The position numbers and the translations under genes are program-made. From positions 868,001 through 932,000 of the forward strand of contig OZ037843.1 in the NCBI GenBank assembly GCA_964035575.1: a DNA stretch of 64,000 bases, given 5' to 3'. The notes beneath the pieces were generated by a model. It searched no databases. It was not told the DNA's origin and was given only the letters and a program-made list of their open reading frames with translations. The DNA comes from Rhynchopus sp. YZ270_cl-10 (Eukaryota). Each line of letters opens with the position of its first letter. Position 1 is the stretch's first letter. Shown piece after piece: positions 10,465-64,000 of this stretch.

Positions 10465-10527
10465 GAGAAGGTCACTTCACTTTTTTTTCCTGAAGTCGTT
10501 TTTCTATTTTTTTATTGTACCTACAAA

Positions 10528-36444: not shown

Positions 36445-37634
36445 TAGGTGGGGGCAAAACCTTCAGGACGGGTGAGGCATTTTGACTTTTTTGGACTTCC
36501 GCGCAAAGTACCCACAAACCACCCCTCATACCCACCCAGAAATGGGTCAGAAACACCCTGTGACCCGAAAATCCATGCTAAGGGCGACTCAGAATATGAA
36601 AAAATGCAAAAAAATAGTGAAAAAGTGGCCTTTTGACGGTTTTGGCCATGTTGGGTAAAATGGCCATTTTTGGACAAAAAAATCAAAAAAACAGCAAAAT
36701 TTCGACGTCATGACAGCTGCTTGGGCACAAACCTACCCCAGGGAGGTCCTGTGAGTCCATTCCGACCTGTTTTGGACACTTTAGGTACTTTTTTTGGCCG
36801 TTTTTTGGTGTTTTTAGGTCAAAAAACATCCCCGGACTATCCCCGGACTATCCCCGGACCGGACTTGCGCCCTGCTTTCAGACCCACTCTGGGCCAAAAA
36901 ATGGGTGAAAACCCCCGAAAAAGCACTCCGGGAACCCAGATAGTTCCAAATATCCACCAGAAACCCACCCAAACACCTCAAAAACATGCCAGAAAAATAT
37001 TTTTAAAAACACACTTTTTCAAATAAGTTATTATGGAACCTGCCCAGATGAACTTTTTGAAAAAAGTGTGTTTTTGAAAATATTTTTCTGGCATGTTTTT
37101 GAGGTGTTTGGGTGGGTTTCTAGTGGATATTTGGAACTATCTGGGTTCCCGGAGTGCTTTTTCGGGGGTTTTCACCTATTTTTTGGCCCAGAGTGGGTCC
37201 AAAAGCAGGGCGCAAGTCGCGGCCCAGGGACGTCCAGGGTAAAGTCCAGGGTATTTTTTGACCTAAAAACACCAAAAAACGGCCAAAAAAAGTACCTAAA
37301 GTGTCCAAAACAGGTCGGAATGGACTCACAGGACCTCCCTGGGGTAGGTTTGTGCCCAAGCAGCTGTCATGACGTCGAAATTTTGCTGTTTTTTTGATTT
37401 TTTTGTCCAAAAATGGCCATTTTACCCAACATGGCCAAAACCGTCAAAAGGCCACTTTTTCACTATTTTTTTGCATTTTTTCATATTCTGAGTCGCCCTT
37501 AGCATGGATTTTCGGGTCACAGGGTGTTTCTGACCCATTTCTGGGTGGGTATGAGGGGTGGTTTGTACGTACTTTGCGCGGAAGTCCAAAAAAGTCAAAA
37601 TGCCTCAAAAAAATAGGGGTTTTGCCCCCACCTA
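36445..37634. mobile_element. TAGG..CCTA foldback element flanked by poly-G
   Basis: ~570-bp inverted arms around a ~30-bp spacer; G-runs at 36422-36444 and 37635-37652. Confidence 0.9.
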
Positions 37635-41649: not shown

Positions 41650-42408
41650 GGTTACGTTTTATTGTTATTCTGTGCAGCATAATAGTTCATATTCATGTGC
41701 ACTTACGTTTGTTTCACGTTCCTTTGTGCCGTAGACGTCTGTCAGTATCACTCCTGGAGAGCCTTCCGCACGGCTGTGGCAGTGGTGACGCTCTGCAGGG
41801 TGTCCTGCTCTCAAGAGTTTTGTTGTCTTCTTCATTAATTGTGCTATTTTTGTATTGTTTGTGAAGTGGCTTTACAGTCACCACTCCCTGGAACAAGACG
41901 TCCTTCTGTAGCCAGTGCACAGACTCACTCTTAGGGTGGGGTGCTGCACTCAGCGAGACAATCTGCATATTCATTTGTAATTATTCAGTAGTTTTCAGAA
42001 CACTCCATTTTCCATGGTGCATATATGCCACCCTTCTGGTGGTTGCATTAACCTTGTGGTTATGAACTGTCCACAGGTCAAACCTGGGGGTACCAGACTG
42101 TCCTTGTCCCCCTTTTTATTTCTCCCCTTCCCCCTTCTAGTGATGGCTGTATTCTTACCTATCATAAATAATACAGCACAACACTGCTGGTGACGCACCA
42201 CAGTTGTATTCAGCATTTAGGGCAAGCCATGAACCATTGTACCTGTTGCGTTTCCTCTGCACATCCGTGGCGATGTTCAGGAACGCCTTTTCCAGCCATC
42301 TCCCGTTTTTATTTTGCACACAGAGTCTGTCTTCCTTGCTTCGAACAAAATAATCCAACCTCACCACTTACGAAGGCAATAATACACCTTTACACACCAC
42401 AGTGCACA

Positions 42409-44142
42409 ATGGGCTGTCTCGAGCGTGCACTGTCGCTTGACGGGACACTGGACACGCACAGCAGACTCATACGCACTCTCTGCTTTTTCTTCAACTGCGT
42501 TACATTCGTAACAGGGATTCTGTTTACTGTGACAGAGGTGCAGAGTTTACATGGTAGGTATCAGTTTTTGGGATGTATTTTTTTAGGCATGCTGAACAGC
42601 TTGTGTTCGATGATTTTCATTATGCTAAAGTACAAGCTGACCACGTTCGTTATCGTGACAGAGTCCGCATTTTACTATATTGCGCTGGTGGTCATGGACA
42701 TAAGTTGGCGAGTTGAGTACGAAAACGCGTGGCCAATGATCGTGCTTTTGGTGGACTTTCTCTTGGTAATGCAAGTGCCCACACGGTACAGCACAATTGT
42801 CGTGGTGTGCACACTGGTGTATTTGGTCATCATCGCTGCAGAAGAAACGTGGAGGTTTGGTCTGCTCGACATGCCCGGGCTCGCGTATCAAGAACATCGA
42901 CGTTCCTACTTAGATAGCATGGGTGACTGTGATGTGCTGCCCTGCAAGAAGAGCGGAGCTGTGAACAACTTAGCATTTGCAGCTATCGTCTTCTTTGTTG
43001 ACTTTATTGTGACGCGAGGCTTTGCACGTGGTCTCCTGAAGGAGCAGGCATCAATGCAACGCACAATCGCGACAGTGCAGGACATCGCCTCGCTCCTTGC
43101 TGGCTACGACGTGGAGAAGGTGGCGGAGCTGCTGGAGGAGCACGGTGGTGAGCTGCCTGACGGGATGACGACAGCACTGCGGAAGTTGGAGCAGAACCTG
43201 CGTGTGTACAAGGCGTACCTCCCGCAGACGTGTCTGCCGTTTGAGGACGAGAAGGACGAATGTGTGGAACCTGGTAGTGAGCAGGATGGCACTGGCAGTA
43301 ACGATGAAACCACAGTGTCAGCGGCAACATCGAGCATGTTGTCTCCAGTTGCGGCTACACGCCCTTCCTTTTGGCTGCAGCCTCTCCTGCTCTCATCCAC
43401 AAATGCAACACTGCTGACACTGAACATCAAAGACACCCTGCACCGCCTGGAGGAGGACAGTGCACAGTTCTCCGACCTCTTCACAACTGTTCTTCTGAAG
43501 ACCCTGCAGGCAACAGACAGCAGACGTGGGATGGTGGACGTCTTTGTTGGGGACAAGATCCACTGTTCGTTCAACGCGTCGAAGCAGTGTGCGTCGCACG
43601 CAACCTCAGCACTGCACGCAGCAAGTGCGATCATGAAAGCTGGCCTGGCAGCCTCTGTGAACGTGGGTGTTGCAATGGGGACAGTGCTGCGTGGTGACAT
43701 GGGTTGTGATGTGATGCGCCGCTTCAGCATGGTGGGGACACTTGTGCGTAACGTGCACGGGATGGAACGTGCAGGACGTATGCTGGGGTGCGACGTTGTC
43801 TGCAACAGGATGTGCTTCAGCGACGCTGAGTGCGAACACGACCTGCGTCTGCTTCCGTGCAAGGTGGAGGTTGCTCAAGACTGCGAGGCACAGGTTGTGG
43901 CTGAGCTGGTTTCGAAGAACGAAGATATTTTGGAAATCTCAAATGCAACAAACGAATGGATGTACCAGATAGGTGGGAAGAAGCACTGGGATTTGTACAA
44001 CACAGTGGTGCGTGGGTACCTGCGTGGTGAGAGCTGTGACACGGACGTTGCAAAGGCGTGGGTGGAGGCGGGTGGGAGTGGCACACCAGCACACGCAGTT
44101 CCTTCCGGGACGTGCAGTGTTGTGTGTTCCTATCTTCGGTGA
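42409..44142 (+). CDS. 6TM pseudo-cyclase copy D
   Basis: Intact paralog closest to copy A; also shares ~110 bp of 3' flank with it. Confidence 0.8.
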   Translation: MGCLERALSLDGTLDTHSRLIRTLCFFFNCVTFVTGILFTVTEVQSLHGRYQFLGCIFLGMLNSLCSMIFIMLKYKLTTFVIVTESAFYYIALVVMDISWRVEYENAWPMIVLLVDFLLVMQVPTRYSTIVVVCTLVYLVIIAAEETWRFGLLDMPGLAYQEHRRSYLDSMGDCDVLPCKKSGAVNNLAFAAIVFFVDFIVTRGFARGLLKEQASMQRTIATVQDIASLLAGYDVEKVAELLEEHGGELPDGMTTALRKLEQNLRVYKAYLPQTCLPFEDEKDECVEPGSEQDGTGSNDETTVSAATSSMLSPVAATRPSFWLQPLLLSSTNATLLTLNIKDTLHRLEEDSAQFSDLFTTVLLKTLQATDSRRGMVDVFVGDKIHCSFNASKQCASHATSALHAASAIMKAGLAASVNVGVAMGTVLRGDMGCDVMRRFSMVGTLVRNVHGMERAGRMLGCDVVCNRMCFSDAECEHDLRLLPCKVEVAQDCEAQVVAELVSKNEDILEISNATNEWMYQIGGKKHWDLYNTVVRGYLRGESCDTDVAKAWVEAGGSGTPAHAVPSGTCSVVCSYLR

Positions 44143-44647: not shown

Positions 44648-45869
44648 GGGTACTCACACTTTTTCTTTTGTTTCTTGTCCTTGGGTTTCCCAAAAATCCG
44701 AGCGGGCGGGCGGGAAAAAAAAAGTGAAGCAAAAAAAAAAAAAGTGGAGGAAAAAAAAAGTGAAGGGGGAAAAAAAACCTGTGGCATGGCTGAGTGCGGT
44801 ATTTTTCCGCCCAAGAGGGCGTTTTGTTGCAGTTCCGAGCCAATCCCGGCTTGTGGTGGGGGATATTCGGAAAAATGGACAAAATTTCAGTGACTTAAAT
44901 TTTCGCAAAATATGAACCCATACTCGTAAACAAGGGTCATTTTCAGTCTAATTCTGGAAATTTTCCGGAAAATTCGGAAAATTCCGACATTTGGAAGCAA
45001 TTTTTTCCCCTGAAAAAAGTGGGTGTTCAGCCCCAAAACGTACCACGGGTTTGTGGCATTTCCGGAACCCATCCGCGCTGTGGTGGCCAGGGTGGGGTCA
45101 CTTTACCGAAATGGCCAAATTCTTGGTTTTGGTCAAAATCCATGTAGGGAAATCCCAAATCCAGATTTTCTCTCCCTGATCCTCGGCGTCTGAAAATACG
45201 AAAGTGCCCGAAAACACCGGCATTTGCATTTCCGGAATCCGTCCGTTGTGTGGTGGGGTCAATTTGCCAAAATGGACAAGTTTTTGGTTTTGGTCAAAAC
45301 CCGTCAGTGTAAGGTAAAGGGGAGCCGAGTGTTCGCCTGTAGAACTGGTAGAAAACAGGCAGCGCCGCAGGCGCACGTTACCAACCTTTTTTACTCGTGC
45401 CATTTTCTATTGATTGCACGAGCCGATTGCCCTCCACCGTGGGGCTCAGATTGGAGCGTGCAGTTCTCTACCTTGTGGGGATGTTGCAGTAGTCAGCAAC
45501 ACAGCGCCGCAGGCGCACGGTACGCTACTTTTTTCCTTTTTTGAAAACTTGGTTGTATTAGTGTAGACACCCGAGGATGAACTCCACTACTTGCCCGGCT
45601 ACAACGTGCCAAATGCTCTGGTCGCATGACCACGGGTGGTCATCTACAACCTCCAAACCCCATTTTTCTCGGGGGTCACCATGTACCCCCGAACCCTGTG
45701 AAAATCTGGAGTTTTCTGGAAAAAATAATGGGGTGGGCATGGTCCCACCCCGGTCCACCTTGGCGGAAACCCTGTACACTTTTTTTTTTTGCCCACTTTT
45801 TTTTTTTTTTCCTCCCTGAAAAATCCGAGCGGGCGGGGACAAGAAACAAAAGAAAAAGTGAGAGTACCC
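44648..45869. mobile_element. PIF/Harbinger-type MITE with internal insertions
   Basis: TIR gggtactc.cactttttcttttgtttcttgtcc, 3-bp TSD TTA. Confidence 0.8.
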
Positions 45870-47158
45870 TTACCTTCCTTCACCCCCCTGTAAGGGTAAC
45901 CGTAGGTGAAGTAAGGTATAGTATTGAAATCGATGTGGGGGGGGGAAAGGGTCAATTTTACAAAACCAGATTTTGAGGAAAATTTTAGCTGAAAATGGGC
46001 CCCACGTATAAGCAACCGGGCTCATATTTCTCAAAATTTAAGTAGTCAAAAAATTGTCCAATTTTCGAGATTGACCCCACCACTGCACGGGCGGAGCCCA
46101 AAAATGCAAATAAGGACCCTTTTTAATTTGTTCTCTTGAAATGTATAATTTCATGTTTTCGCGAAAAAAATTACAACTGATCCCTACAAGGGTTGAAGGA
46201 AGGTGGTTGAAAACAACAGTAACAACAAGGACAAGTAATTGCTAAGGAAAAACGGGTGTGCTGTGGAAAACTCCGCGCGATTTTCGAAACCACCGTAGCA
46301 TCCTGGCGATTTGCTGGAGGTGCTGATGTGCCTGGTGTGATCGATGTGTTGTAGTCTGTGCATTCTGTGTTCCTTCCGCACTGCTCCAACGACGACGACA
46401 ATGTGGGGAGCCTGTGGACAAAAACGAGCTGGAACACGCCGAGCCTGCCGAGCCGACGTCCAACAACGCTGTCGAGCAGATGGTGCTGGACGAAGAGGAC
46501 AGCCCCCCCCTTCTTGAACGTTTCAGATGCTGGCGACAGTGGGTCTGGCAGCTTACGAAGAGCGTTAGCATACCTGCAGAAGAGCAGAATGCTGGGCGTA
46601 TTGTAGATTATTTCTACAGGATGGAGTTCCACATCACACCCCGTTTTTTTTCCGATAGCAATTACTTGTTTTTTTTTTTTTTTATATGCGTAGCAGGGCC
46701 TTTTCTAAGTCCATGGGCCCATGGCACCCCTCCGAAAACACACTTTTTTTCTGTACAAATGCCACACGTAAAAAAAATATTTTTCTGTACAAATGCCACA
46801 CAGGGCGCGCGCTAAATCCACACCCTCACACCCGGTTTTTTCGAGGTTTTTTCGCGGTACAAAAATTTTTTGATTACACGATTTCCTTAAGAAAATCAGA
46901 GAATCCCATATTGTACAGTAAGGGCACTTCAGATAGTTTTTGGACACACATGTGACCCCACCGTGGAGAGCAATCGGCTCGCACAATCAAAAGAAAGCAG
47001 AGAAAAAGGGAAAGAAAAAAGAAAAAGTTGGGTACCGTGCGCCTGCGGCGCTGCCTGTTCCCTACCCCCCCATGATGTACTTATGTATATTCCACCTGAT
47101 TTTGACCATGTTTGCCGGTGTTTGCCGGTGTTTTCCGGTGTTTGCCGGTGAAGTCACG

Positions 47159-48193
47159 GTACTGTGTACTGTGTACTGTGTACTGTGTACTGTGTACTGT
47201 GTACTGTGTACTGTGTACTGTGTACTGTGTACTGTGTACTGTGTACTGTGTACTGTGTACTGTGTACTGTGTACTGTGTACTGTGTACTGTGTACTGTGT
47301 ACTGTGTACTGTGTACTGTGTACTGTGTACTGTGTACTGTGTACTGTGTACTGTGTACTGTGTACTGTGTACTGTGTACTGTGTACTGTGTACTGTGTAC
47401 TGTGTACTGTGTACTGTGTACTGTGTACTGTGTACTGTGTACTGTGTACTGTGTACTGTGTACTGTGTACTGTGTACTGTGTACTGTGTACTGTGTACTG
47501 TGTACTGTGTACTGTGTACTGTGTACTGTGTACTGTGTACTGTGTACTGTGTACTGTGTACTGTGTACTGTGTACTGTGTACTGTGTACTGTGTACTGTG
47601 TACTGTGTACTGTGTACTGTGTACTGTGTACTGTGTACTGTGTACTGTGTACTGTGTACTGTGTACTGTGTACTGTGTACTGTGTACTGTGTACTGTGTA
47701 CTGTGTACTGTGTACTGTGTACTGTGTACTGTGTACTGTGTACTGTGTACTGTGTACTGTGTACTGTGTACTGTGTACTGTGTACTGTGTACTGTGTACT
47801 GTGTACTGTGTACTGTGTACTGTGTACTGTGTACTGTGTACTGTGTACTGTGTACTGTGTACTGTGTACTGTGTACTGTGTACTGTGTACTGTGTACTGT
47901 GTACTGTGTACTGTGTACTGTGTACTGTGTACTGTGTACTGTGTACTGTGTACTGTGTACTGTGTACTGTGTACTGTGTACTGTGTACTGTGTACTGTGT
48001 ACTGTGTACTGTGTACTGTGTACTGTGTACTGTGTACTGTGTACTGTGTACTGTGTACTGTGTACTGTGTACTGTGTACTGTGTACTGTGTACTGTGTAC
48101 TGTGTACTGTGTACTGGGTACTGTGTACTGTGTACTGTGTACTGTGTACTGTGTACTGTGTACTGTGTACTGTGTACTGTGTACTGTGTACTG
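47159..48193. repeat. (GTACTGT)n tandem array, ~148 units
   Basis: Nearly perfect 7-mer array with one variant unit near 48117. Confidence 0.98.
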
Positions 48194-48569
48194 GCTGTCC
48201 GAAAGACCTGAAAATGACCCTTGTTTACGAGTATGGGTTCATATTTTGTGAAAATTTAAGTCACCAAAATTTTGTCCATTTTTCCGTATATCCCCCACCA
48301 CAGCCCGGGATTTTCTCGGAAATGTAACATGACCCTGATTTTTCTGCCCCCCTTCACATACTTCCTGTAGGTACATTTTTTTGGACCCGATATCCATTTT
48401 TTCGGGAAATTTCCGAAAAGTTAGCGCGCGCCCTGATGCCACAGGCAAAATATTTTTTCTGTACTTTTGCCACATGGGAGGTGGGGGGGGTGGGGGTGGG
48501 GGGCGGAGCCCCCACCCACCGGCCCCCAAAAAAAATTCTTTAAAAAAAAAGGAAAAAAAAGAAGAAAGA

Positions 48570-48910
48570 AAGTGACGAGAGTAAATAGTAAGTTACTGTT
48601 ACACGAGCACGTGTTAGAGTGGATCAACCAACACAAGCGGACGCAGGATGAGAGGTTGGTGCATACATTTGTCTCGCAGAAGAGTTACTTGTGAGCAGCC
48701 CCTCCAGCGTTGAAGTGGAACGGTTGTTTTCACGCATTGCCCACATTCGGAGTCCTAATCGCCGAAGCCTCAATCTCAGCACAATCGAAGATCACCTGTT
48801 TGTGAAACTTGGCACAACGCTTTTTGCTTCCACCCTACCAGCTGGTAAAGATGCGATAACAGAGATATCGGCCGAGACCATAGCCCGGATGGCTGCGTCT
48901 AAGACATTCC
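48570..48910 (+). pseudogene. hAT transposase C-terminal (dimerization) fragment
   Basis: VLEWINQH.. then, after a frame change, PSSVEVERLFS..RRSLNLSTIEDHLFVK, matching the hAT SxxxERxFS/RxxL motif. Confidence 0.75.
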
Positions 48911-49798
48911 GCTTCAAAAAGAGAGAGCCGGGCAATGCTGCGGATACGGGGGACGACAGAGAAGACGGAGGGGACGGAAGAGGACTCTACCAACACGTGG
49001 AATGGGAAACGGAGTACCCCGACTACCTGGATCTTCCAGATGCAGAGCAGCTTTCAGGTACCCAGGAGGCACCTGGGTACCTGAAAGCTGCTCTGGCCTG
49101 GGGACGGGATAGTTCACAACCGCCCCTTCTCCTATTTGGCTCATTTTTCCCCTTCTTCAACCCCCACCCCCGAAAAACCCCTCTCAAAAATATGAGGGGA
49201 GATGCCCCGCCAACGCACCGACCGGAAAGCTCGGAATGGGTTTCCGGGAGTTTTTTACGTGTGGCATTTGTACAGAAAAAAGTCATTGGCACCTCGGCCA
49301 AAATCGGGGTTTTTGGCTCAACTTAGAGCCACCCCTGATGCGTAGCTTAAAGGAGAAATAGTTCCTCAGATACGGTCCGCCAATCACCCCCTCAAACAGG
49401 GTAATTGTGCAATCAACGGAAAAACCTTTTTTCCCTTTACTGACCTATCAGAGTTACCATTTTATTTTTACTTGCACAACGGCGTGTGTGAGGATATTGA
49501 GCGCCAGGTAGGGAAATACTATGATATTGGGTTCGGTCGATCGTGCGTTTACTATCTTCCTGTCTTTCCCCCCCCATTCTCTTTCCCCCCTCCACGTTGT
49601 GTGTGATTACAGTGCATTTTACAGCGCGCTGGCTAGGTAGTGGATTTTTTCAGGTTGGGTATTTCTGCAGCAATGCGGGAGAAAAATGGGGAGGTGGATG
49701 GGGGGGTTTTTTTTTTCGAAGATATGACATGCCATGACAAGTGTGCTAAATCTCTCTCATTTTTCCATTCGCAATTTTCCCTACCCCCGGTTTTTAAA

Positions 49799-49870
49799 TA
49801 GCCCAGGCTCCTTCTGATGAGCGCGGTCACGGGGCTGAATCCTGGTCAAGGAGCAGACCGCCGAAACCAG
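49799..49870 (+). ncRNA. Hammerhead ribozyme candidate, non-circularly permuted
   Basis: CTGATGA 49814-49820, GAAA 49863-49866, GTC cleavage triplet 49845-49847, with three complementary stems abutting the core. Confidence 0.75.
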
Positions 49871-51309
49871 AAATGAACTCTTTTACCCCTCCCTTTTTTT
49901 CTTGTTTCCACAAAGGAGTGTTAGCCAAAAGGGACACAAGATAGTAAGGCTAGATACTCAACAAAGTTTAATGCAATCTTGCTTGTCGTTACCTTTTGCA
50001 GTTAACATCAAACTAAAATGCTTTTTTCGGCAAAAAAACAAAGCCAAAGCAATACAGAGAGAACCAGCCAATTTTTCAACATACAAACGATCTTTCGACC
50101 CCCCCGGTTTTTAGAATCAATAGAGAGTGTACAGTAAGACTTCTGTGGTACAAGCATTTTGTTGTGTTAATGTCCCCCTCAGCACATCGTATGTTTCGCC
50201 ATCAGTATCAGTGAACCCTTCAATCAGTTTACACTGAAACCCCACAGGGTGAGTGCGTGGCAACAAATCCCTTCATTTGATCTACACTAATGCAACCTAT
50301 GTTCAGGGCTCGAGGTGCATCTAATTATCTGGCCTCACGACCAGGGGGTGGGGGACAAAAAACAATCTACTCCCCTCCCTCCCTCATCCGCGTGTTTTCC
50401 CTCCCTCTCCCTGTCTTCTTAGGATTTCTAAACCAGGACTATTTTGTGCTACTTTCTGCTATTTTCTGCTATTTTGGGGTCGTCAGCCACACCAAGGACG
50501 GACTCAGAACCGCGACCTACAACCTTTCTAAAACGGTAAGTACCAGAGTGTCCAAGCACTCACGTAAGGCTGCCCCCGGGGGGGGAAGAATTTTTCATAA
50601 AAGCTGCTCTCAAGGGGTTCAGGACGAATGACGTCTATACCTTCCGTAGTGCAAAAGGCTTTGGCCAACATGGAGTGCAGACCCTATCAACCCCAAAGTA
50701 GGTTCTTAGGAAATTGTCGATCTACCCTGGTCTATAATCAACCAAAAACAAAGAAACCCCCCCCTCGCACAGCACTTTATTTGAATTCACCACGACTCTT
50801 TGGTCCCTATTCATGTCGGTTCTCAGTCCTCGTACTTTTTAGGGCTACGTGCTTTATATACTACTTATATGTAGTTATGTATTTTCCAAGTGGACCCGAC
50901 TACCCGATGTTTTACATCATTTTCTTTTACTTTTAATCCCACCTTTTAGCGAAAAACACTCCCACCCTCCCCAATACAGAAATCTGTTTTTGTCCCCAGA
51001 CTGCCCCCCTGTTTTGGATACGGAGTGCCTTTTGTTTTAAATAAAAAGTAATTTATTGCTTTTAGGGCAGGCTCACTTTTGTCTGTGTTTAATGCTCGGA
51101 GGGCCCAAAAATTTTCCGCGCGCGCGCGCAAGAAAAAAACATGGAACAAAAAAAACAAGAAAAAAAAAACACACACACGTTGGGGATGGAGAATCTATTA
51201 TTGGGGGTCAAATGGGTTTATGAAATTTTTGTTACGTTTTGCTTTGTGCTCTTTTTTTTTGTCTTTTTTTTTTTTTTTTTTTGGGAAAAAAAATTCTGGG
51301 ACACGACGG

Positions 51310-52684
51310 CAGGGGTCCTAACGCTGTTCTCAAAAAAAATTTAAATGGTAACTTCAAGGTCACTTCTCGTTTTTTGGGGAGGAAAAAAAAAAACTTTCCC
51401 CCCTCAGAGGCGGTATGGCAACAACACAAGTGAAGTTGAAAAGGTGCAAATCCTCGGACATACACTGGACGTTGGATCGCCGTATCATAGGGACAGGGTA
51501 CTATGGGGTGTCCCCAACCCCGGTGAAATCCGGGCGAAATCGGGTGAAATCGGGCGAAATCGGGCAAAAACAGGGTTTTTTGGCTTCTGTGAGGGTTTGG
51601 CCCAGTAAAACACCCAGAAACCGCGCTTTTCGAGATTTCCGCGCTGGGTCTGGGTGAACTAAAAAAAAAATCGGCCACTTTCGTTGAGCAGAACCCCTTT
51701 AGGTGACTCACTGTACACAGTACACAGTACACAGTACACAGTACACAGTACACAGTACACAGTACACAGTACACAGTACACAGTACACAGTACACAGTAC
51801 ACAGTACACAGTACACAGTACACAGTACACAGTACACAGTACACAGTACACAGTACACAGTACACAGTACCGCTCTTCCAGGCTGTTTCCTAATTCTGGA
51901 AATTTTCCGGAAAATTCCGACATCTGGAAGCAAATATTTTCCCTGAAAAAAAGTGGGCTCCAAAACATGCCGCGATTGGCGTTTCCGGAATCCGTCCGCG
52001 CTGTGGTGGGGTCACTTTGCCGAAATGGCCAAGTTCTTGGTTTTGGTCAAACCCCGCCCAAGCTCCCCACCGCCAACCCAAAAAAAGGAATTTTTGAAAT
52101 CCGGGCGAAATCGGGTGAAATCGGGTGAAATCGGGCGAAATCGGGTGAAATTGGGTTCAGGTGGGCCCAGGTGGGCTCTAGGGGGGCGATTGTGGGCTGG
52201 TCGCGGGACACCACATATACTAGATACATTTTTTTCTTGTGAGGCAATTTTCGCAGCGGTCTGTGTCACCGTTTTGGTTCCTGGCGAAGCCACGGTACGC
52301 AACATTTCTAAAAAATGTTGCCATAAAATGGCACTATCGTTGGTAATTATCGTAAGTTTCCGTAAATTACTTACGTATTTTGCTGAAACGAAAGTTTCTG
52401 GCGAAGCCACGGTACGCATCGCTTAAAATTGTACATGGTAGCAACCTGCGCCCTGCAGACCACTGATCTTGACAAAAAAGAAAAAAAATCCCAGACCCTC
52501 CAACGTGCTCCCGGTGTATGTTAAGTATCCGAGGTCACTTCGTGACACCGGATTTCAAAAAATATAAAAAAAGGTCACTTTTTAGGGCACTTTTCGAAGG
52601 TCACTTCGAAGTGACCTTCGAATTTCAAAAAAATAAAAAAGGTCACTTCGGAAGTGGTAAAAGTTACCACTCTTAGGACCCCTG
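51310..52684. mobile_element. hAT-type MITE containing a (CAGTACA)n array
   Basis: TIR caggggtcctaa / ttaggacccctg, exact 8-bp TSD CACGACGG. Confidence 0.85.
51713..51870. repeat. (GTACACA)n array, ~22 units; reverse complement of the 47159 satellite
   Basis: Direct reading of the sequence. Confidence 0.95.
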
Positions 52685-52782
52685 CACGACGGGTCCGAAA
52701 ATGGCAACGACGGGTCCGAAAATCATTTCACAAACATTTCACAATATTTTTGTAGGAACTTGGTGCACAAAATCACCCTCAA

Positions 52783-53328
52783 TGGGGAGATCCGGGTGCC
52801 CGCAACAACAATATTCACAAGCAATCACAAAAAAAAAATCCTCTTCACAAAAAATCACAAACAATCACAAACAAAAAATCTTATTCACACAAAATCACAC
52901 AAAATCACAAAAAATAAATCCTATTCACAAAAAATCACAAACAATCACAAAAAATCACAAAAAATCACATCCACTTTTTGTGATTTTTTGTGATTGTTTG
53001 TGATTTTTTGTGAATAGGATTTTTTTTTTGTGATTGCTTGTGATTTTTTGTGAATAGGATTTATTTTTTTGTGATTTTGTGTGATTTTTTGTGAATAAGA
53101 TTTTTTGTTTGTGATTTTTTGTGATTTTTTGTGAATAGGATTTTTTTTTTGTGATTGCTTGTGATTTTTTGTGATTTTTGTGATTTTTTGTGATTTGTTG
53201 TGAATAGAATTTTTTTTTTGTGATTTTTTGTATTTATTTTGTGTGATTTTGTGTGATTTGTTGTGATTTGTTGTGATTTTTTGTGATTTTTTGTGAATAT
53301 TGTTGTTGCGGGCACCCGGATCTCCCCA
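52783..53328. mobile_element. TGG..CCA foldback element with 5-bp TSD
   Basis: 38-bp perfect TIR tggggagatccgggtgcccgcaacaacaatattcacaa, TSD CTCAA, internal aatcacaa repeats in opposing orientation. Confidence 0.85.
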
Positions 53329-53856
53329 CTCAAGCCCCACTACTCTCTCCCTCACACCTTTTATTACTACAATGTTTTTTTTTTTTCCCATGTTTTTTTT
53401 TTTGGAATTCTCAAAATTTTCCGCGCGCGCGAGCAATAAACACAGACAAAAGTGAGCCTGCCCTTATCTATTCAAAAAAAAATATTTATTTATCAAAAAC
53501 CCCTCGCACAGCACATGTAGAGTCTGCCTTCCGTGGCACGCTTTCTATCAAAACGCCCCAAACTTTCGAATCACCAGAGACAGTGCTACCAGCGCGACTG
53601 TCGCGCGGGGGGCGCAACAAAAAATTTGTGCGCGGGACAACTCTAAAATAACTGCAAGACGTAGTTTTTTTCCTCCAAACTGCTCAGGCACCCATCAGAA
53701 ACGTGTCCAAAAGTCGAAATCTGTGTATTTGACGATTTTTGCTTCAGTAGAACTACTTTTTTGGTTTTTTTCTTTTTGTCGCGTGTCGCGCGCCACTTGT
53801 CGCGCTGGTAGCGCTGCCAGAAGGCAGGAACACACCTTTACACACCACAGTGCACA

Positions 53857-55584
53857 ATGGGCTGTCTCGAGCGTGCACTGTCGCTTGACGGGACACTGGA
53901 CACGCACAGCAGACTCATACGTAGTATTTTTTTGTTCTTCGGCTGTACATCCTGCATAGCCGCGTCTACGTTTCTTCTGGTTCAGATGCGGAGTGTACAT
54001 GGCAAGCATCTGGACATGGTGGCTTATCTTTTGGCTGTGGTGGGCGGCTTCTCCTCTGCATTAATAGTTCTGCTTAAGCACAAGCTGACCACGTTCATCA
54101 TTGTGACAGAGTCCGTACTGTACTACGTTTCGCTGCTGTTGCTGGACATAAGTTGGCGTCCTGAGTACGCAAACGCCTGGCCAATGATGGTGCTTGTGGT
54201 GGACTTTCTCTTGGTATTGCAAGTGCCCACACGGTATAGCACAATTGTCGTGGTGTGCACACTGGTGTATTTGGTCATCATCACTGCAGAAGAAACGTGG
54301 AGGTTTGGTCTGCTCGACATGCCCGGGCTCATGCCTCAAGAACATCGACGTTCCTACGTAGAGAGCATGGGTGACTGTGATGTGCTGCCCTGCAAGAAGA
54401 GCGGAGCTGTGACCCAATTAGTATTTGCAGCTTCCGTCTTCGTCATTGACTTTATTGTGACACGAGGCTTTGCACGTGGTTTCCTGAAGGAGCAGACATC
54501 AATGCAGCGCACAATCGCGACAGTGCAGGACATCGCCTCGCTCCTTGCTGGCTACGACGTGGAGAAGGTGGCGGAGCTGCTGGAGGAGCACGGTGGTGAG
54601 CTGCCTGAGGGGATGACGACAGCACTGCGGAAGTTGGAGCAGAACCTGCGTGTGTACAAGGCGTACCTCCCGCAGACGTGTCTGCCGTTTGAGGACGAGA
54701 AGGACGAATGTGTGGAACCTGGTAGTGAGCAGGATGACACTGACAGTGATGATGAAGGCACAGGGTCAGCGGCAACATCGAGCACGTCTGCTGCAGTGCA
54801 ACCCACTTCCTTCTGTCTGCAGCCGCTACTGCTCTCATCCACAAATGTAACACTGCTGACACTGAACATCAAAGACACCCTGCACCGCCTGGAGGAGGAC
54901 AGTGCACGCTTCTCCGACCTCTTCACAACTGTTCTTCTGAAGACCCTGCAGGCAACAGACAGCAGACGTGGGATGGTGGACGTCTTTGTTGGGGACAGGA
55001 TCCACTGCTCGTTCAACGCGTCGAAGCCGTGTGCGTCGCACGCAACCTCAGCACTGCACGCAGCAAGCATGCTCATGAGAGCTGGCCTGGCAGCCTCTGT
55101 GAACGTGGGTGTTGCAATGGGGACAGTGCTGCGTGGTGACATGGGTTGTGATGTGATGCGCCGCTTCAGCATGGTGGGGACACTTGTGCGTGACGTGCAC
55201 GGGATGGAACGTGCAGGACGTATGCTGGGGTGCGACGTTGTCTGCAACCGTCTTTGCTTCAGCGACGCTGAGTGCGAACACGACCTGCGTCTGCTTCCGT
55301 GCAAGGTGGAGGTTGCTCGAGACTGCGAGGCACAGGTTGTGGCTGAGCTGGTTTCGAAGAACGAAGCTATTTTGGAAACCTCAACTGCAACAGACGAGTG
55401 GATGTACCAGATAGGCGGGAAGAAGCACTGGGATTTGTACAATACAGTGGTGCGTGGGTACCTGCGTGGTGAGATCTGTGCCACGGACGTTGCGAAGGCG
55501 TGGGTGGAGGCGGGTGGGAGTGGCACACCAGCACACGCAGTTCCTTCCGGGATGTGCAGTGTTGTGTGTTCCTATCTTCGGTGA
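53857..55584 (+). CDS. 6TM pseudo-cyclase copy E (mosaic)
   Basis: Intact 575-aa ORF; N-terminal half resembles copy C, C-terminus and 3' flank resemble copies A/B. Confidence 0.8.
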   Translation: MGCLERALSLDGTLDTHSRLIRSIFLFFGCTSCIAASTFLLVQMRSVHGKHLDMVAYLLAVVGGFSSALIVLLKHKLTTFIIVTESVLYYVSLLLLDISWRPEYANAWPMMVLVVDFLLVLQVPTRYSTIVVVCTLVYLVIITAEETWRFGLLDMPGLMPQEHRRSYVESMGDCDVLPCKKSGAVTQLVFAASVFVIDFIVTRGFARGFLKEQTSMQRTIATVQDIASLLAGYDVEKVAELLEEHGGELPEGMTTALRKLEQNLRVYKAYLPQTCLPFEDEKDECVEPGSEQDDTDSDDEGTGSAATSSTSAAVQPTSFCLQPLLLSSTNVTLLTLNIKDTLHRLEEDSARFSDLFTTVLLKTLQATDSRRGMVDVFVGDRIHCSFNASKPCASHATSALHAASMLMRAGLAASVNVGVAMGTVLRGDMGCDVMRRFSMVGTLVRDVHGMERAGRMLGCDVVCNRLCFSDAECEHDLRLLPCKVEVARDCEAQVVAELVSKNEAILETSTATDEWMYQIGGKKHWDLYNTVVRGYLRGEICATDVAKAWVEAGGSGTPAHAVPSGMCSVVCSYLR

Positions 55585-56215
55585 TTGTGGTGCTGTGTCG
55601 CTATGTTGTGTGCAGTATTGCCATTTGTCTATGTGTGTCGGTGTGATAGACCGTATCCGTAACTTATCTGGGGAGCATAATATTATATTCTGGACCGCAA
55701 TCACTGTAACTTTTCGATTCTTCCGAGTCACCTCTTCTGTGTTCCAGATATGTTGTGGTAGGTGTTTTTGTGGGGGGAGTTTTGCGGGGTCTTTCCAGCA
55801 ACCCTGCCACTTCTTAACACTACCAGTGCATAGTCTTTGTCTTTCTTTTTGGGTATGCGGGACTCTCCCCTTGTCAGGGTGCTAAACGTCCCTGACCCTT
55901 CCCCATGCAAAGTTGAACCCTGGCAGGGTATATTTTTGCTGGGGCGTGGCTTCCCGATGCCACGACGGGTGCTCGCACCCAGAGCGTTAAACAGCGACAA
56001 ACGGCCAGGCCAGGACTTCGTTTCTGCTGCACCAATAGGTTACGATGTGTTGCCTGTAAGGACGTCCATACAAGAGAAGGGGTGAGTCCTTACTGTCGGT
56101 GCAGACATTAGACGCCAAGAGACATGTTGTGACCCCGCCCCCCTAGGCATAGTGTGCACGAACATTTTTGGTTCGTCGACGAACATCGACGAACAATCCC
56201 CCCCCCCCCCCCCCC

Positions 56216-57248
56216 TAGGGGGGTCCGTCCGGCCGTTTTTGCTGTCCAAAACCGCTTTTTTTGAAGAAAACCCCCGAAAAAACACTCAAAACCACCCAAA
56301 ACCCCCCCGAAACCACCCGAAAACCACCCAAAATTACGAAAAATGCACTTCTGAGCACCAATTTTTATTTTTTTCTGACTTTTTGGGCTTTAGAGTGCGA
56401 AAATGTCAAAAAGGGGGGTATACGGGTAGTTTAAGCGTTGCAGACACATACACATCCCCAAAAATACACCCAAGGACCCCAAAAAGCTGCAAAAACCACA
56501 CATTTCCACCTCGGGACCCCAGCGGAGGTGGGCTGAGGTGGTTTTTGGGTGTTTTGAATTTACATCAGTTTTTTTTGATGAAAAAATCGTGTTTTCTAAC
56601 CGTTTTTAGCCGGGAGTAAGTGTTGCAAAGTGTTGCATAGCCGGCTCATACCCGTTGCATGCCATTTCATGGCCCAAAAAAGCCTACCGAGTGTCCCAAA
56701 TGCTATTTTTCACCCCACATGAGGTCTGGGAGTCATTTCCTGGGGTATTTTGACACTATGACGACTGTCATATTACTTTTTTTGGGGTTTTCAGGACGGG
56801 CTATGTTTGAAGGAGGGGCTATGTTTAAGCTTTCGAGGCACACACGCACACTGAAAAATGCATCTGGGACCCACACAGGACCCCCAAAAAGCTGTAAAAC
56901 TATATATTACCACCTCGGGAACCCAGAGGAGGTGGACCGAGGTGTTTTTCGGGTCTTTAGATGGAGTTTTATATGATCGGAGAATTTTTTTGTCAAGTGT
57001 TGCATTTTGCCACAAAGTGTGACGCGAGCGTGACGGTATTTTGAGGGGTTTTTCACAAAAAAATCAATTTTTTTTAGTCGGGAAAGTCTCTGTAGAGGTT
57101 GTCAGGTGGTTTATTGGGATATTTGGGTGATCCCCAGGGCGATTTGCGCCCAGGTACGACCTTTTTAGTGGATTTCTTCACCTAAATTTCAAAAAAATGG
57201 TTTTGGACAGCAAATCCTTAAGGAATTCCTTCTACGTGGACCCCCCTA
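56216..57248. mobile_element. TAGGGG-terminal TIR element flanked by poly-C
   Basis: TIR taggggggtcc / ggacccccccta-like; C-runs on both sides. Confidence 0.7.
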
Positions 57249-57266
57249 CCCCCCCCCCCCCCCCCT

Positions 57267-58447
57267 TAGGGGATACGACTCCAGCCATTTTGGCTGGGAC
57301 CAAACGCACGGAAAATTCATTTGGCATTATCTGGCCATCTCCAAGGCAACTGCGGGTGAAAAACACCCTCAGAGTGGGTCACAGGGGGCCTGTGGGTCGA
57401 AAAACGACCCAGAAGCCACCCCAGAATACAAAAAAATGGAAAAAAATAGTGAAAAAACGGCTTTTTTCACGTTTTGGCCACTTTGGGCAAAATAGCGATT
57501 TTTCGAGAAAAAAATCAAAAACCGGGATATTTTTTGACATCACAAAGCCTCCTTTGGCACAAATATACCCCAAAAGTGGCCTGTGAGTCCATTCCAACCT
57601 GTTTTGGACATATTTGACACTTTTGGAAGTGTTTTTTTGGTGTTTTTAGGTCAAAAAAATGCCCAAGACATCCCCAAGACACTTTGCACACCCCCTGTTA
57701 CGGTCATATTTTTTTCGTTTTTTTGCCTGAAACCCCCAAAATACCCCTCCCGGACCCCACATAGTCCCGAATATCCATCACACACCCACTCAGAGTGAGT
57801 AGAAGCACCCCAAAAAAAATATTTTTTAAAGCCCTAAAATTGTGCTTCAGTTTCGGCAGCATCCATGTTGAAGTTGAAGGGCTTTAAAAAATATTTTTTT
57901 TGGGGTGCTTCTACTCACTCTGAGTGGGTGTGTGATGGATATTCGGGACTATGTGGGGTCCGGGAGGGGTATTTTGGGGGTTTCAGGCAAAAAAACGAAA
58001 AAAATATGACCGTAACAGGGGGTGTGCAAAGTGTCTTGGGGATGTCTTGGGGACGTCTTGGGCATTTTTTTGACCTAAAAACACCAAAAAAACACTTCCA
58101 AAAGTGTCAAATATGTCCAAAACAGGTTGGAATGGACTCACAGGCCACTTTTGGGGTATATTTGTGCCAAAGGAGGCTTTGTGATGTCAAAAAATATCCC
58201 GGTTTTTGATTTTTTTCTCGAAAAATCGCTATTTTGCCCAAAGTGGCCAAAACGTGAAAAAAGCCGTTTTTTCACTATTTTTTTCCATTTTTTTGTATTC
58301 TGGGGTGGCTTCTGGGTCGTTTTTCGACCCACAGGCCCCCTGTGACCCACTCTGAGGGTGTTTTTCACCCGCAGTTGCCTTGGAGATGACCAGATAATGC
58401 CAAATGAATTTTCCGTGCGCAAAAAATGGCTGGAGTCGTACCCCCTA
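57267..58447. mobile_element. TAGGGG foldback element flanked by poly-C (truncated extra arm at 58458-58597)
   Basis: ~570-bp inverted arms with a 45-bp spacer; internally similar to the 36445 element. Confidence 0.9.
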
Positions 58448-59006
58448 CCCCCCCCCATAGGGGATACGACTCCAGCCATTTTGGCTGGGACCAAACGCAC
58501 GGAAAATTCATTTGGCATTATCTGGCCATCTCCAAGGCAACTGCGGGTGAAAAACACCCTCAGAGTGGGTCACAGGGGGCCTGTGGGTCGAAAAACGCCC
58601 CCCCCCCCCCCCCCCCCACGACGAACATCGACGAACATTTTGTTCGTCTGCACACTATGCCTAGGCATACACTCGATGCGAGTCGCATGCGAGAATCATT
58701 ATCGCATTCTCGCACACCATTATCGCATGCGATAATCATTATCGCACACGTAGAGGATTTTGGTACAAGGGAAGGCCTGGCCTGTGTTTCGTTTTTGGGG
58801 ACATGTAGTGTCCAGGGACAGTTTCTGTCGCAAAATAGATGAAGTAACCCCATTTTCCCGTATCCCCCAACACCCCAACCCCTCTAACCGCTGTGTACCT
58901 GTGTACCTGTGTACCCGTGGGTACTACGAGACTGCCAAATGAAGCACACACCAACCTCACCACTTACGAAGGCAGGAATACACACCTTTACACACCACAG
59001 TGCACA

Positions 59007-60740
59007 ATGGGCTGTCTCGAGCGTGCACTGTCGCTTGACGGGACACTGGACACGCACAGCAGACTCATACGTAGTATTTTCTTGTTCTTCAGCTGTGCAG
59101 TCTTTATGGCAGCGACTACGTTTAGTCTGGTTCAGATGCGGAATTTACATGGCAGGCATCTATACGTGGGGGCTTTTATTCTAGCTGTGATGGGTGCCAT
59201 CTCTTCTATTATTATGGTTCTGCTTAAGTACAAGCTGACCACGTTCATCATCGTGACAGAGTGCGCACTGTACTATGTTTCGCTGCTGTTACTGGACATA
59301 AGTTGGCGTCCTGAGTACGTAAATGCCTGGCCAATGATGGTTCTTATGGTGGACTTTCTCTTGGTGATGCAGGTGCCCACACGGTACAGCACAATTGTCG
59401 TGGTGTGCACATTGGTGTATTTGGTCATCATTGCTGCAGAAGAAACGTGGAGGTTTGGTCTGTTCGACATGCCCGGGCTCATGCCTCAAGAGCATCGACG
59501 TTCCTACTTAGATAGCATGGGTGACTGTGATGTGCTGCCTTGCAAGCAGAGCAGAGCTGTGAACCGATTACTATTTGCAGCTTCCGTCTTCGTCGTTGAC
59601 TTTATTGTGACGCGAGGCTTTGCACGTGGTCTCCTGAAGGAGCAGGCATCAATGCAGCGCACAATCGCAACAGTGCAGGACATCGCCTCGCTCCTTGCTG
59701 GCTACGACGTGGAGAAGGTGGCGGAGCTGCTGGAGGAGCACGGTGGTGAGCTGCCTGAGGGGATGACAGCGGCACTGCGGAAGTTGGAGCAGAACCTGCG
59801 TGTGTACAAGGCGTACCTCCCGCAGACGTGTCTGCCGTTTGAGGACGAGAAGGACGAATGTGTGGAACCTGGTGGTGAGCTGGATGGCACTGACAGTGAC
59901 GACTCAAGCACAGTGTCAGCAGCATCATCGGACACGTCTGCTGCAGTGCGACGCACTTCTTTCTGGCTGCATCCGCTACTGCTCTCATCCACAAATGCAA
60001 CACTGCTGACACTGAACATCAAAGACACCCTGCACCGCCTGGAGGAGGACAGTGCACGCTTCTCCGACCTCTTCACAACTGTTCTTCTGAAGACCCTGCA
60101 GGCAACAGACAGCAGACGTGGGATGGTGGACGTCTTTGTTGGGGACAGGATCCACTGCTCGTTCAACGCGTCGAAGCCGTGTGCGTCGCACGCAACCTCA
60201 GCACTGCACGCAGCAAGTGCGATCATGAGAGCTGGCCTGGCAGCCTCTGTGAACGTGGGTGTTGCAATGGGAACAGTGCTGCGTGGTGACATGGGTTGTG
60301 ATGTGATGCGCCGCTTCAGCATGGTGGGGACACTTGTGCGTGACGTGCACGGGATGGAACGTGCAGGACGTATGCTGGGGTGCGACGTTCTCTGCAACCG
60401 TCTTTGCTTCAGCGAAACTCAGTGCGAACACGACCTGCGTCTGCTTCCGTGCAAGGTGGAGGTTGCTCAAGACTGCGAACCTGAGGTTGTGGCTGAGCTG
60501 GTTTCCAAGGAAGGAGATATTTTGGAAGAAGAAATCTCAAATGCAACAGACGAGTGGATGTACCAGATAGGCGAGAAGAAGCACTGGGAGGACTACAACA
60601 CAGTGGTGCGTGGGTACCTGCATGAGGAGATCCGTGACACGGACGTTGCGAAGGCGTGGGTGGAGGCGGGTGGGAGTGGCACACCAGCACACGCAGTTCC
60701 TTCCGGGACGTGCAGTGTTGTGTGTTCTTATCTTCGGTGA
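59007..60740 (+). CDS. 6TM pseudo-cyclase copy C' (duplicate of C)
   Basis: Essentially identical protein to 6065..7798 (EDEKD vs EDGKD). Confidence 0.8.
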   Translation: MGCLERALSLDGTLDTHSRLIRSIFLFFSCAVFMAATTFSLVQMRNLHGRHLYVGAFILAVMGAISSIIMVLLKYKLTTFIIVTECALYYVSLLLLDISWRPEYVNAWPMMVLMVDFLLVMQVPTRYSTIVVVCTLVYLVIIAAEETWRFGLFDMPGLMPQEHRRSYLDSMGDCDVLPCKQSRAVNRLLFAASVFVVDFIVTRGFARGLLKEQASMQRTIATVQDIASLLAGYDVEKVAELLEEHGGELPEGMTAALRKLEQNLRVYKAYLPQTCLPFEDEKDECVEPGGELDGTDSDDSSTVSAASSDTSAAVRRTSFWLHPLLLSSTNATLLTLNIKDTLHRLEEDSARFSDLFTTVLLKTLQATDSRRGMVDVFVGDRIHCSFNASKPCASHATSALHAASAIMRAGLAASVNVGVAMGTVLRGDMGCDVMRRFSMVGTLVRDVHGMERAGRMLGCDVLCNRLCFSETQCEHDLRLLPCKVEVAQDCEPEVVAELVSKEGDILEEEISNATDEWMYQIGEKKHWEDYNTVVRGYLHEEIRDTDVAKAWVEAGGSGTPAHAVPSGTCSVVCSYLR

Positions 60741-62306
60741 TTGTGTTACTACTGCGTTCATGTGTGCAGTATTGCCATGTGTCTGTGTGAGTCAGTGTGA
60801 TATACAAGAACCCTAACTTTGCAATGTAAATATTTTATCCCCTACACTTTTTATTCACGACAAGGTGAAAAATGTCACGAAATTTGTCCACCTTCGTATA
60901 TTTTTACAAAAATATCGCCAGGTGACATTAATTCTGGGACACACTGTGTACCGTGCACCATGGAGTCGTAAGGACTTTACGCGCGTCGTGACGTCGTAAT
61001 TATGAGGCACCCGCGACAAGTCAATTTTTGACCCAAAAATGACTATTTATCTCACGAAATAAAGTGAACATTATTTCACGAGGTGGTGAGTGACACAAAG
61101 TGGAGTTCAGCATTTTGATTTCACTGTTATCATAAAAATGATGTCACGAATGATAGCGAGTGCTATCACGTGTTTCAGTTTGTGAATCACCCATCACCGG
61201 GTTAAATGATGTTCACTTTAGTTTTGGGATACGTAATTTTATCTCACGGGTAATAATGTTGTGCGGCGAAATTCCTACAGTATATTTGACAAATGATGTA
61301 TGCCAACCAGTACGTGGTGTCAGACATAAACGATACTTTCAACCAGAAAAAAATATTTTTTTCTCCTTTTTTTCTAAGTAAGAGAAAACCGAATGGAGTG
61401 GGAACGCTAGTGAGAGCGCAGCGGAAACGATAGTGGGAACGCAACGAGCTGTTTTCATAATGTTTTATTCTTCCCCACAAAATATCACGCGCAGAGAAAC
61501 ACTCGTTTTTCACACAGCGCGTCCGTTTGTTTGTTTTTCTCAAACGACACCTTTTTTCAAAAATTTTCGCCCGGTATCACATATGATACTGATTTCCATG
61601 GATACACATGAAAAGGAGTTCCATTCTATTCACAGAACTCGATAGGCGATTGAGCTTATCTAACAACAACCAAAACAAAAGAAAGTACAAAGAAGAGAAT
61701 AAAAAATGCAGGAAAAATAGACAAAGAGAAAAACAAAGAGATTTTGACAAAGTGAACAATAAAACACACGTGCTGGTTTTTGTGTTCGCTACTTTTTATC
61801 AAAAAGCTTTCCCTAGTTTCGAGTGCGAAACGTTTCTCCATGTATTGCACGGAAAACAATATTACAAACAGGTACAGGATGGCTGCGTGCAGAAGCATAG
61901 AACCTGGCACCCTGTGTGTCCCCCAAAAACAAAAAGCGTTGTGTGTTGAAGTTTTGAAGGAAGGAAAAATAAAACTTTGTGTCAGAATGCCCAGAGCTGA
62001 GCCCAGATTTTGTCCTTCTGTCACTCACGTGACTGACGTGCTTCCGACAGCTTTATGATTGCACCCCGCCACCTTGACCTCACATCAAGAGGACGTATCA
62101 CAGCTAGATGTGGTTTGAGGTTTGTCACGTCACATGAGTCGTGTGGTGCTTGTGATCCACCTGTTGAGGCAGGTTGACTCAGTGGCAAGATCATGTGTTG
62201 GTGATATTCTGCCAAAGAGTGGGTACTACCAGACTGCCAAATGAAGCACACACCAACCTCACCACTTACGAAGGCAGGAACACACCTTTACACACCACAG
62301 TGCGCA

Positions 62307-64000
62307 ATGGGCTGTCTCGAGCGTGCACTGTCGCTTGACGGGACACTGGACACGCACAGCAGACTCATACGTAGTATTTGCTTTTTCTTCAACTGTGTAA
62401 TCTTCGTATCAGGAATTGTGTTCTCTGTGATTGAGCTGCAGATCTTGCATGGCAGGTATCAGTATTTGGGTGGTGTTCTCACAGGCATGCTGAACGGTTT
62501 GTGTTCAATTGTTTTCATTATGCTAAAGTACAAGCTGACCACGTTCATCATCGTGACAGAGTCCGCACTGTACTTTGTTGCGGTGGTTCTCGTGGACATA
62601 AGTTGGCGCATCGAGTATGAATACGCCTGGCCAATGATCGTGCTTGTGGTGGACTTTCTCTTGGTGATGCAAGTGCCCACACGGTACAGCACAGTTGTCG
62701 TGGTGTGCACACTGGTGTATTTGGTCGTTCTTGCTGCAGAAGAAACGTGGAGGTTTGGTCTGTTCGACATACCCGGGCTCGCGTATCAAGAACATCGACG
62801 TTCCTACTTAGAGAGCATGGGTGACTGTGATGTGCTGCCTTGCAAGGAGAGCGAAGCTGTGAACCGATTACTATTTGCTGCTATCGTGTTTGTTGTTGAC
62901 TTTATTGTGACGCGAGGCTTTGCACGTGGTCTCCTGAAGGAGCAGGCATCAATGCAGCGCACAATCGCAACAGTGCAGGACATCGCCTCGCTCCTTGCTG
63001 GCTACGACGTGGAGAAGGTGGCGGAGCTGCTGGAGGAGCACGGTGGTGAGCTGCCTGACGGGATGACGACAGCACTGCGGAAGTTGGAGCAGAACCTGCG
63101 TGTGTACAAGGCGTACCTCCCGCAGACGTGTCTGCCGTTTGAGGACGGGAAGGACGAATGTGTGGAACCTGGTGGTGATCTGGATGGCACTTGCAGTAAC
63201 GATGAAAGCACAGTGTCAGCGGCAACATCGAACACGTCTGCTGCAGTGCGACGCACTTCCTTCCGTGCACCGCCTCTCCTGCTCTCAACCCCGAATGCAA
63301 CACTGCTGACACTGAACATCAAAGACACCCTGCACCGCCTGGAGGAGGACAGTGCACGCTTCTCCGACCTCTTCACAACTGTTCTTCTGAAGACCCTGCA
63401 GGCAACAGACAGCAGACGTGGGATGGTGGACGTCTTTGTTGGGGACACTGCTCGTTCAACGCGTCGAAGCCGTGTGCGTCGCACGCAACCTCAGCACTGC
63501 ACGCAGCAAGCATGCTCATGAGAGCTGGCCTGGCAGCCTCTGTGAACGTGGGTGTTGCAATGGGGACAGTGCTGCGTGGTGACATGGGTTGTGATGTGAT
63601 GCGCCGCTTCAGCATGGTGGGGACACTTGTGCGTGATGTGCACGGGATGGAACGTGCAGGACGTATGCTGGGGTGCGACGTTCTCTGCAACCGTCTTTGC
63701 TTCAGCGACGCTGAGTGCGAACACGACCTGCGTCTGCTTCCGTGCAAGGTGGAGGTTGCTCAAGACTGTGAGGCACAGGTTGTGGCTGAGCTGATTTCGA
63801 TGGAAGAAGAAACCTCAACTGCAGCAGACGAGTGGATGTACCAGATAGGCGAGAAGAAGCACTGGGATTTGTACAACACAGCGGTGCGTGGGTACCTGCG
63901 TGGTGAGAGCTGTGACACGGACGTTGCAAAGGCGTGGGTGGAGGCGGGTGGGAGTGGCACACCAGCACACGCAGTTCCTTCCGGGATGTGCAGTGTTGTG
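62307..64000 (+). pseudogene. 6TM pseudo-cyclase copy B', frameshifted and cut by the window edge
   Basis: Duplicate of B with a different 7-bp deletion (ggggac^actg) at ~63446. Confidence 0.75.

Follow-up and report, generated by a model that had tools for sequence, protein, structure and literature searches.

Hammerhead ribozymes were divided by Eckert et al. (2023) into three blocks, C, S and G (PMC10085705). Classical types I-III are circular permutations of the order C-G-S, and type CSG was published from two unique sequences (CSG-1, CSG-2), which come only from soil metagenome DNA and cleave in vitro (0.004 and 0.026 per min). Neither SGC nor CSG had an example from the genome of a known organism, and the authors judged CSG's biological relevance to be less well evidenced than that of SGC (PMC10085705). 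A 2026 paper, in the part of it that is available, still cites Eckert and two other references for such variants (PMC13725137). The literature searched, which included euglenozoan and diplonemid work and left subscription papers mostly outside its coverage, held no later report of a type-CSG or non-circularly permuted hammerhead, in line with the rarity that an earlier note on this DNA had stated.

Strand order and pairing at 49799-49870

The window analysed here is a stretch of 64,000 nucleotides on a 1.68-Mb contig from Rhynchopus sp.; in this stretch the earlier note had described a hammerhead fold with non-circular strand order. We recovered all of its pairings, the core and the GTC ending at 49847 at the positions it had given, and its linkers of 1 nt (A49855) and 13 nt (49829-41) are correct. 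Stem I (49807-13/49848-54) consists of 7 Watson-Crick pairs, stem II of G49821-C49862, the bulged C49822 and then 6 pairs (49823-28/49856-61), and stem III (49842-46/49866-70) of 5 pairs, giving stems of 7/7/5 bp, with one stem II bulge, in register with a hammerhead core whose bases CUGAnGA, GAAA and UH are all present at 49799-49870. The extra helix, which the note had considered possible, has 6 pairs including one G-U (49799-804/49832-37), in the position it occupies in CSG-1 and CSG-2. The block order C-S-G lies outside the circular permutations of C-G-S and is the definition of type CSG (PMC10085705). The locus very probably belongs to a real family of CSG hammerheads, and we consider it rather likely that the window copy itself self-cleaves in vitro, with the cut predicted after C49847 (Table 1).

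Table 1. Features of the ribozyme and of the repeat that carries it (window coordinates)
Feature	Position	Strand	Evidence or remark
Type-CSG hammerhead ribozyme (predicted)	49799..49870	+	pairings, descriptor; topology matches the available part of the supplementary alignment of PMC10085705
Fourth helix, 5' strand, tying stems I and II	49799..49804	+	partner 49832-49837
Block C	49807..49828	+	stem I 5' strand 49807-13, CUGAUGA 49814-20, G10.1 49821
Block C, remainder		+	bulged C 49822, then stem II 5' strand 49823-28
Fourth helix, 3' strand	49832..49837	+	
Block S	49842..49854	+	stem III strand 49842-46, stem I 3' strand 49848-54
Predicted cut after C49847	block S	+	by analogy with hammerheads
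Block G	49856..49870	+	stem II 3' strand 49856-62, GAAA 49863-66, stem III strand 49866-70
Short dispersed repeat, 304 bp	49797..50100	+	without poly(A) and without coding match; likely a non-autonomous retroelement copy
Left copy of 13-bp direct repeat CCCCCGGTTTTTA	49784..49796	+	likely target-site duplication
Right copy of 13-bp direct repeat	50101..50113	+	
A/C-rich 3' terminal segment	50040..50100	+	A+C makes up 68% of the final 60 nt; also retained by copies with internal deletions
Pyrimidine tract, then AG	49878..49915	+	31/34 nt pyrimidine (49878-911), AG at 49914-15

The ribozyme shares with CSG-1 and CSG-2 the block order C-S-G, the full core, the G10.1-C11.1 pair and the GUC site; like them, it was found in DNA. 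As far as the published alignment is available, it also shares a fourth helix that joins a segment 5' of stem I with a segment 3' of the 5' strand of stem II. In contrast, the stem sequences differ, stems I and II have 7/7 bp in the window copy and 6/6 in CSG-1 and CSG-2, and the bulged C beside G10.1-C11.1 is absent from the published pair. The link between the 3' strands of stems I and II is 1 nt here and 5 nt there, the fourth helix has 6 bp with joints of 2 and 3 nt compared with 8 bp and no joints in the available alignment, and the whole ribozyme measures 72 nt rather than 66 nt. Whereas CSG-1 and CSG-2 are two unique, hostless soil-metagenome sequences, the window ribozyme is part of a multi-copy repeat on a eukaryotic chromosome-scale contig. 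What is new here is the host and the element context, which we did not find in the papers searched; the fold type is already known and is very rare.

To search the window, we used a descriptor covering all six block orders, with stems of at least 4/4/4 bp, G-U pairs allowed and the fourth helix not required. The site, with stems of 7/7/5, was its sole match, and it was returned only in the order CSG, so the classical types I-III were rejected. Rfam gave nothing over 49799-49870 at E≤1, as the earlier note had expected of the standard models. In 300 dinucleotide shuffles of the window (2-kb blocks, both strands) the descriptor matched 26 times in total, four times as CSG and never with stems of at least 6/6/5. 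As a positive control, 14 viral loci were examined with the same kind of descriptor (stem III minimum of 3), which assigned 13 of them to classical type I. The published RNAmotif pattern, as we re-implemented it, finds the site only if a 1-nt bulge and a linker longer than 10 nt are both allowed; this pattern is a search aid and not the definition of type CSG.

No homologue was found outside the host, by searches of low sensitivity. A viral scan gave 14 loci, 13 of classical type I and none CSG. With a generic pattern, the viral loci listed (at least 120) included two of type I and no CSG, and a family-specific pattern had no match in the viral scan. A 15-nt pattern, which is too short, gave at least 120 metagenome loci, and 0 of the 120 listed fit any hammerhead order; neither did any of 51 loci in prokaryote genomes, and blastn against phages gave no match. 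The viral contigs L121-L134 (matches near position 1001) hold thirteen classical type I hammerheads with a CCUU/AAGG stem I, several of them with an additional hairpin downstream.

Nested folding of the window copy gives a structure of -24.1 kcal/mol that excludes all four ribozyme helices. These helices stack to -50.2 before loop costs; ViennaRNA cannot score the pseudoknot, and a z of -0.16 is therefore uninformative. With the A that most copies have at 49831, the predicted share of the two ribozyme helices that do not cross goes up from 0.05 to about 0.6. All three substitutions listed inside the ribozyme raise that share, from 0.05 to 0.61, 0.45 and 0.12, and they rank 32, 48 and 88 among the 228 single changes; many single changes beyond the natural ones relieve the competing nested fold as well. 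In this model the natural changes lend modest support to the ribozyme fold, and the window copy may be weak, slow or misfolding.

Copies, ends and surroundings of the repeat

The ribozyme opens a 304-bp repeat, its first helix lying 2 nt inside the start at 49797, and the window holds one copy. We aligned contigs of four public sequencing runs, out of nine listed, to 48200-51700. Since the runs may come from the source organism, they are not independent; runs X6-X9 contribute small shares, and X6 seems to carry the copies of X1 and is not independent of that run. An A at 49831 is found in 29 contigs of X1, 20 of X3 and 28 of X4, with summed depths of 7305, 5192 and 21115, which are a rough guide and give no copy number, alongside depths of 70-76, 69-113 and 212-334 for contigs of the unique flanks. 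Dozens of variant copies thus exist in the runs.

The other copies align from 49797/49798 in the sequencing contigs. In X4 one unique contig runs as far as 49824, and in X1, X3 and X4 unique contigs start again at 50072, which places the shared sequence at about 49795-50101 if k is taken as 31. The alignment is built on the window copy, so copies elsewhere may reach further upstream. The ends defined by the reads coincide, in the window copy only, with the 13-bp direct repeat. When both ends were fixed to 5 nt, a direct repeat longer than 10 bp occurred at 0 of 1175 background positions; with the right end free, 16 of 1175 reach 13 bp, and the 10-nt core of the repeat occurs seven times in the window. 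This repeat, observed in a single copy, is likely a target-site duplication; no empty site was encountered.

At its 3' end (50100) the repeat has no poly(A), and the 304-bp unit has no Pfam match above the cut-off. The depth in X1 rises from 7000-15000 in the ribozyme to about 38000 at 50038, as copies truncated at the 5' end would lead one to expect. Joints from 49866 to 50040 and from 49873 to 49954 reveal shorter copies that retain the ribozyme and the 3' end, and in X4 a joint across (TC)7 that leads from 50104 back to 50011 resembles a partial tandem; the window locus itself is single. These properties, a dispersed multi-copy repeat with ends matching a 13-bp direct repeat, agree with the mobile-element setting first proposed, and we regard the repeat as most likely a retrotransposed unit. 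The proposal that the ribozyme marks the 5' end of an element holds in part: the ribozyme does stand at the 5' end of the repeat, but the repeat has its start some 50 nt upstream of the predicted cut, and the copies accordingly retain the whole ribozyme instead of starting at the cut site.

Variation among the copies was taken from 40 of the 126 substitutions and 12 of the 63 indels in the variant tables, and stem or core changes may be among the rest. Three listed substitutions fall inside the ribozyme (49830, 49831 and 49838), all within the 11 linker positions among its 72 (p ~0.003), and 12 fall in 49875-50039. The fourth helix would gain one pair through the change at 49838. Three listed indels also lie inside the ribozyme, two in linkers and one in the fourth helix, the latter an insertion behind 49834 on a single X4 contig. 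The ATG at 49873, to which the earlier note had drawn attention, is present in the window copy, but a role for it is not supported: position 49875 is T in most other copies, with ATT in 3136 of 3236 of the summed depth in X1 and in all of the listed depth in X4, and the ATG is therefore probably incidental. By analogy with euglenozoan trans-splicing, the pyrimidine tract and AG at 49878-49915 might, speculatively, be a spliced-leader acceptor and as such could provide the 3' cleavage product with a cap.

The surroundings are rich in repeats. At 48467-48900 (+) there is a frameshifted remnant resembling the C-terminal dimerisation region of hAT transposases (Pfam E 0.011, under the cut-off). 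No relatives of the hAT-like frame were found, and a 53-bp near-perfect palindrome lies within this frame at 49043-49095. The segment 48574-49124 lies on one invariant contig of depth 642 in X1, where unique DNA has about 75; there may thus be several recent copies of identical sequence. Very high-copy short repeats, with summed depths of 140,000-640,000 in X1, occupy 48200-48330, 49370-49486 and 50423-50539, and 48208-48329 has an inverted copy at 44825-44946, possibly with MITE-like ends. The patchwork is flanked by (GTGTACT)n arrays in opposite orientation (47157-48193, about 1 kb, and 51709-51872, about 160 bp); these were rejected as ends of the element, as the flanks differ and unique DNA separates the arrays from it. 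Long inverted repeats at 36950-37130, 52700-53330 and 57794-57917, with sub-threshold miRNA-type Rfam matches, are probably foldback or MITE elements. An apparently intact Tc1/mariner transposase (DDE_3, HTH_Tnp_Tc3_2) is encoded at 27441-28466 (+). Intronless genes of a large tandem family of membrane cyclase-like proteins lie at 318-7864, 23799-31979, 42229-44142 and 53857-63521; a Pfam cyclase domain is present in the 874-aa copy at 23799, the tested copies of 575 and 650 aa gave no significant match in Pfam, and frameshifts occur in some copies. Just one named relative was found for the proteins of the window; it comes from Rhynchopus euleeides and shares 36% identity. By this one protein the host is probably a diplonemid, and so probably a marine protist.

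Proposed mobilisation of the element

The explanation we favour, with a probability of roughly 0.6, is that a pseudoknotted CSG ribozyme, as predicted, opens a multi-copy non-autonomous retroelement of 304 bp that is probably mobilised by a Penelope-type reverse transcriptase; the Penelope-type partner, taken by itself, is a tentative assignment to which we give somewhat less than an even chance. Read-through transcription of the element would produce an RNA with a three-way junction made of stem I, stem II and the fourth helix, and this junction would hold stems I and II together in place of the usual contact between loops I and II. The core would then cut after C49847, freeing units from read-through or tandem transcripts. 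Target-primed reverse transcription would begin at the A/C-rich 3' end of the RNA, with 50040-50100 as the likely start region, and new copies would arise from uncut, circular or multimeric RNA; copies would keep the half upstream of the cut because such RNA serves as their template.

Several properties of Penelope-like elements, as given in the available parts of the papers cited, are consistent with this scheme. Hammerheads are a general feature of these elements, protists included (PMC4209133; PMC6765202; bioRxiv 10.64898/2026.07.22.740005), and are carried within their repeats (PMC4209133). In a lizard element, insertion does not need the hammerhead, the template is mainly uncut RNA, and reverse transcription initiates inside a downstream AC-rich stretch (PMC11167929). 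Like the hammerheads of Penelope-like elements and non-LTR retrozymes, the one described here lies in a short dispersed repeat without poly(A) (PMC4209133, PMC11167929, PMC8557442, bioRxiv 10.64898/2026.07.22.740005). In those systems, too, according to the portions available, copies keep the whole ribozyme, the 3' end follows soon downstream in an A/C-rich stretch, and helix II bulges are known. In contrast, the Penelope-like and retrozyme hammerheads described in these portions are of type I and often dimeric, whereas the window ribozyme is CSG with a 5-bp stem III, and the window locus, unlike Penelope-like elements, has no tandem array or reverse transcriptase frame. None of the 49 open frames scanned in 48195-51710, out of 50 listed, holds a reverse transcriptase or GIY-YIG remnant, which counts against a Penelope-type partner. 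The accessible text on Naiad and most Chlamys elements describes them as being without canonical hammerheads, with eight Naiads carrying unexplained hammerhead core halves 35-50 nt apart (PMC8557442); the corresponding gap in the window ribozyme is 42 nt, within that range.

A real CSG ribozyme could also be mobilised by a LINE-type enzyme of the ingi/L1Tc, SLACS, R2 or jockey kind, the hammerhead standing in for the HDV-like ribozyme at the 5' end of trypanosomatid elements, which releases them from polycistronic RNA. The ribozyme does stand at the very 5' end of the element, with a pyrimidine tract and AG downstream. For D. papillatum, the genome paper gives models of LINE-1, SLACS, R2 and jockey; its available part does not mention Penelope, a further point against a Penelope-type partner (PMC10161547). 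Trypanosomatid L1Tc/ingi, NARTc and SIDER resemble the present case in their euglenozoan host, in a 5' ribozyme on a short non-autonomous element and in a target duplication of similar length, about 12 bp for L1Tc, but according to the same partial source they differ in an HDV-like ribozyme that cuts at its own 5' edge and in poly(A) ends (PMC4035085). The absence of poly(A) at 50100 argues against this clade, and a cut at 49847 would leave copies without their 5' half, which is well covered in the other copies; we therefore consider a LINE-type enzyme unlikely. A SINE of the L1Tc/ingi clade in the strict sense (SIDER/NARTc, with the Pr77 HDV-like ribozyme and poly(A)) was rejected, as the site has neither poly(A) nor an Rfam match. 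The window contains no tRNA, and thus there is no sign of a tRNA-derived SINE head. Somewhat less likely still, the 304 bp would not be a short element of their own but the 3' end (pseudo-LTR) that 5' truncation left of a longer, autonomous Penelope-like element. One 493-nt X6 contig has 242 unaligned letters before 49797, and hammerheads near the 3' ends of Penelope-like elements are described in the available text of PMC8557442, but it would take a coincidence for the truncation to fall exactly 2 nt ahead of the first helix of the ribozyme, and the internally deleted copies retain both ends.

Movement of the repeat as DNA, whether inside the hAT/MITE-like patchwork (48200-51700) or through segmental duplication, with the ribozyme either carried along as a passenger or used in processing host RNA, is improbable. 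Such movement would fit the high-copy short repeats on both sides and the hAT dimerisation match at 48652-48900, which is weak and stays below the cut-off (E 0.011), but single-copy DNA lies between the element and those repeats on either side, and comparison of the element with itself gives no end-to-end inverted repeat. Duplications made by hAT elements are of 8 bp, which the 13-bp direct repeat exceeds. Least probable of all, at a few chances in a hundred, is a chance arrangement or dead relic of which no copy cleaves: the competing nested fold of the window copy would agree with it, whereas the shuffle test, the fourth helix at its published position and the confinement of the listed substitutions to linkers argue against it.

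In print, the CSG permutation rests on two similar sequences of unknown origin. A sequence-unrelated CSG example with dozens of genomic variants, probably from a culturable protist lineage, would provide a covariation set, and would also give CSG a host and a testable job. A permuted descriptor, moreover, allows a direct test of the question of Penelope elements without hammerheads. That short retroelements with a type-CSG hammerhead at their centre form a family in diplonemids is a possibility we put forward with reserve, at about one chance in three. If they do, the CSG permutation would have its first biological home. This would also suggest that in the Penelope-type lineages reported without a hammerhead (Naiad/Chlamys) the regular ribozyme is a scrambled one, overlooked only because the patterns used in searches presuppose the classical order of strands.
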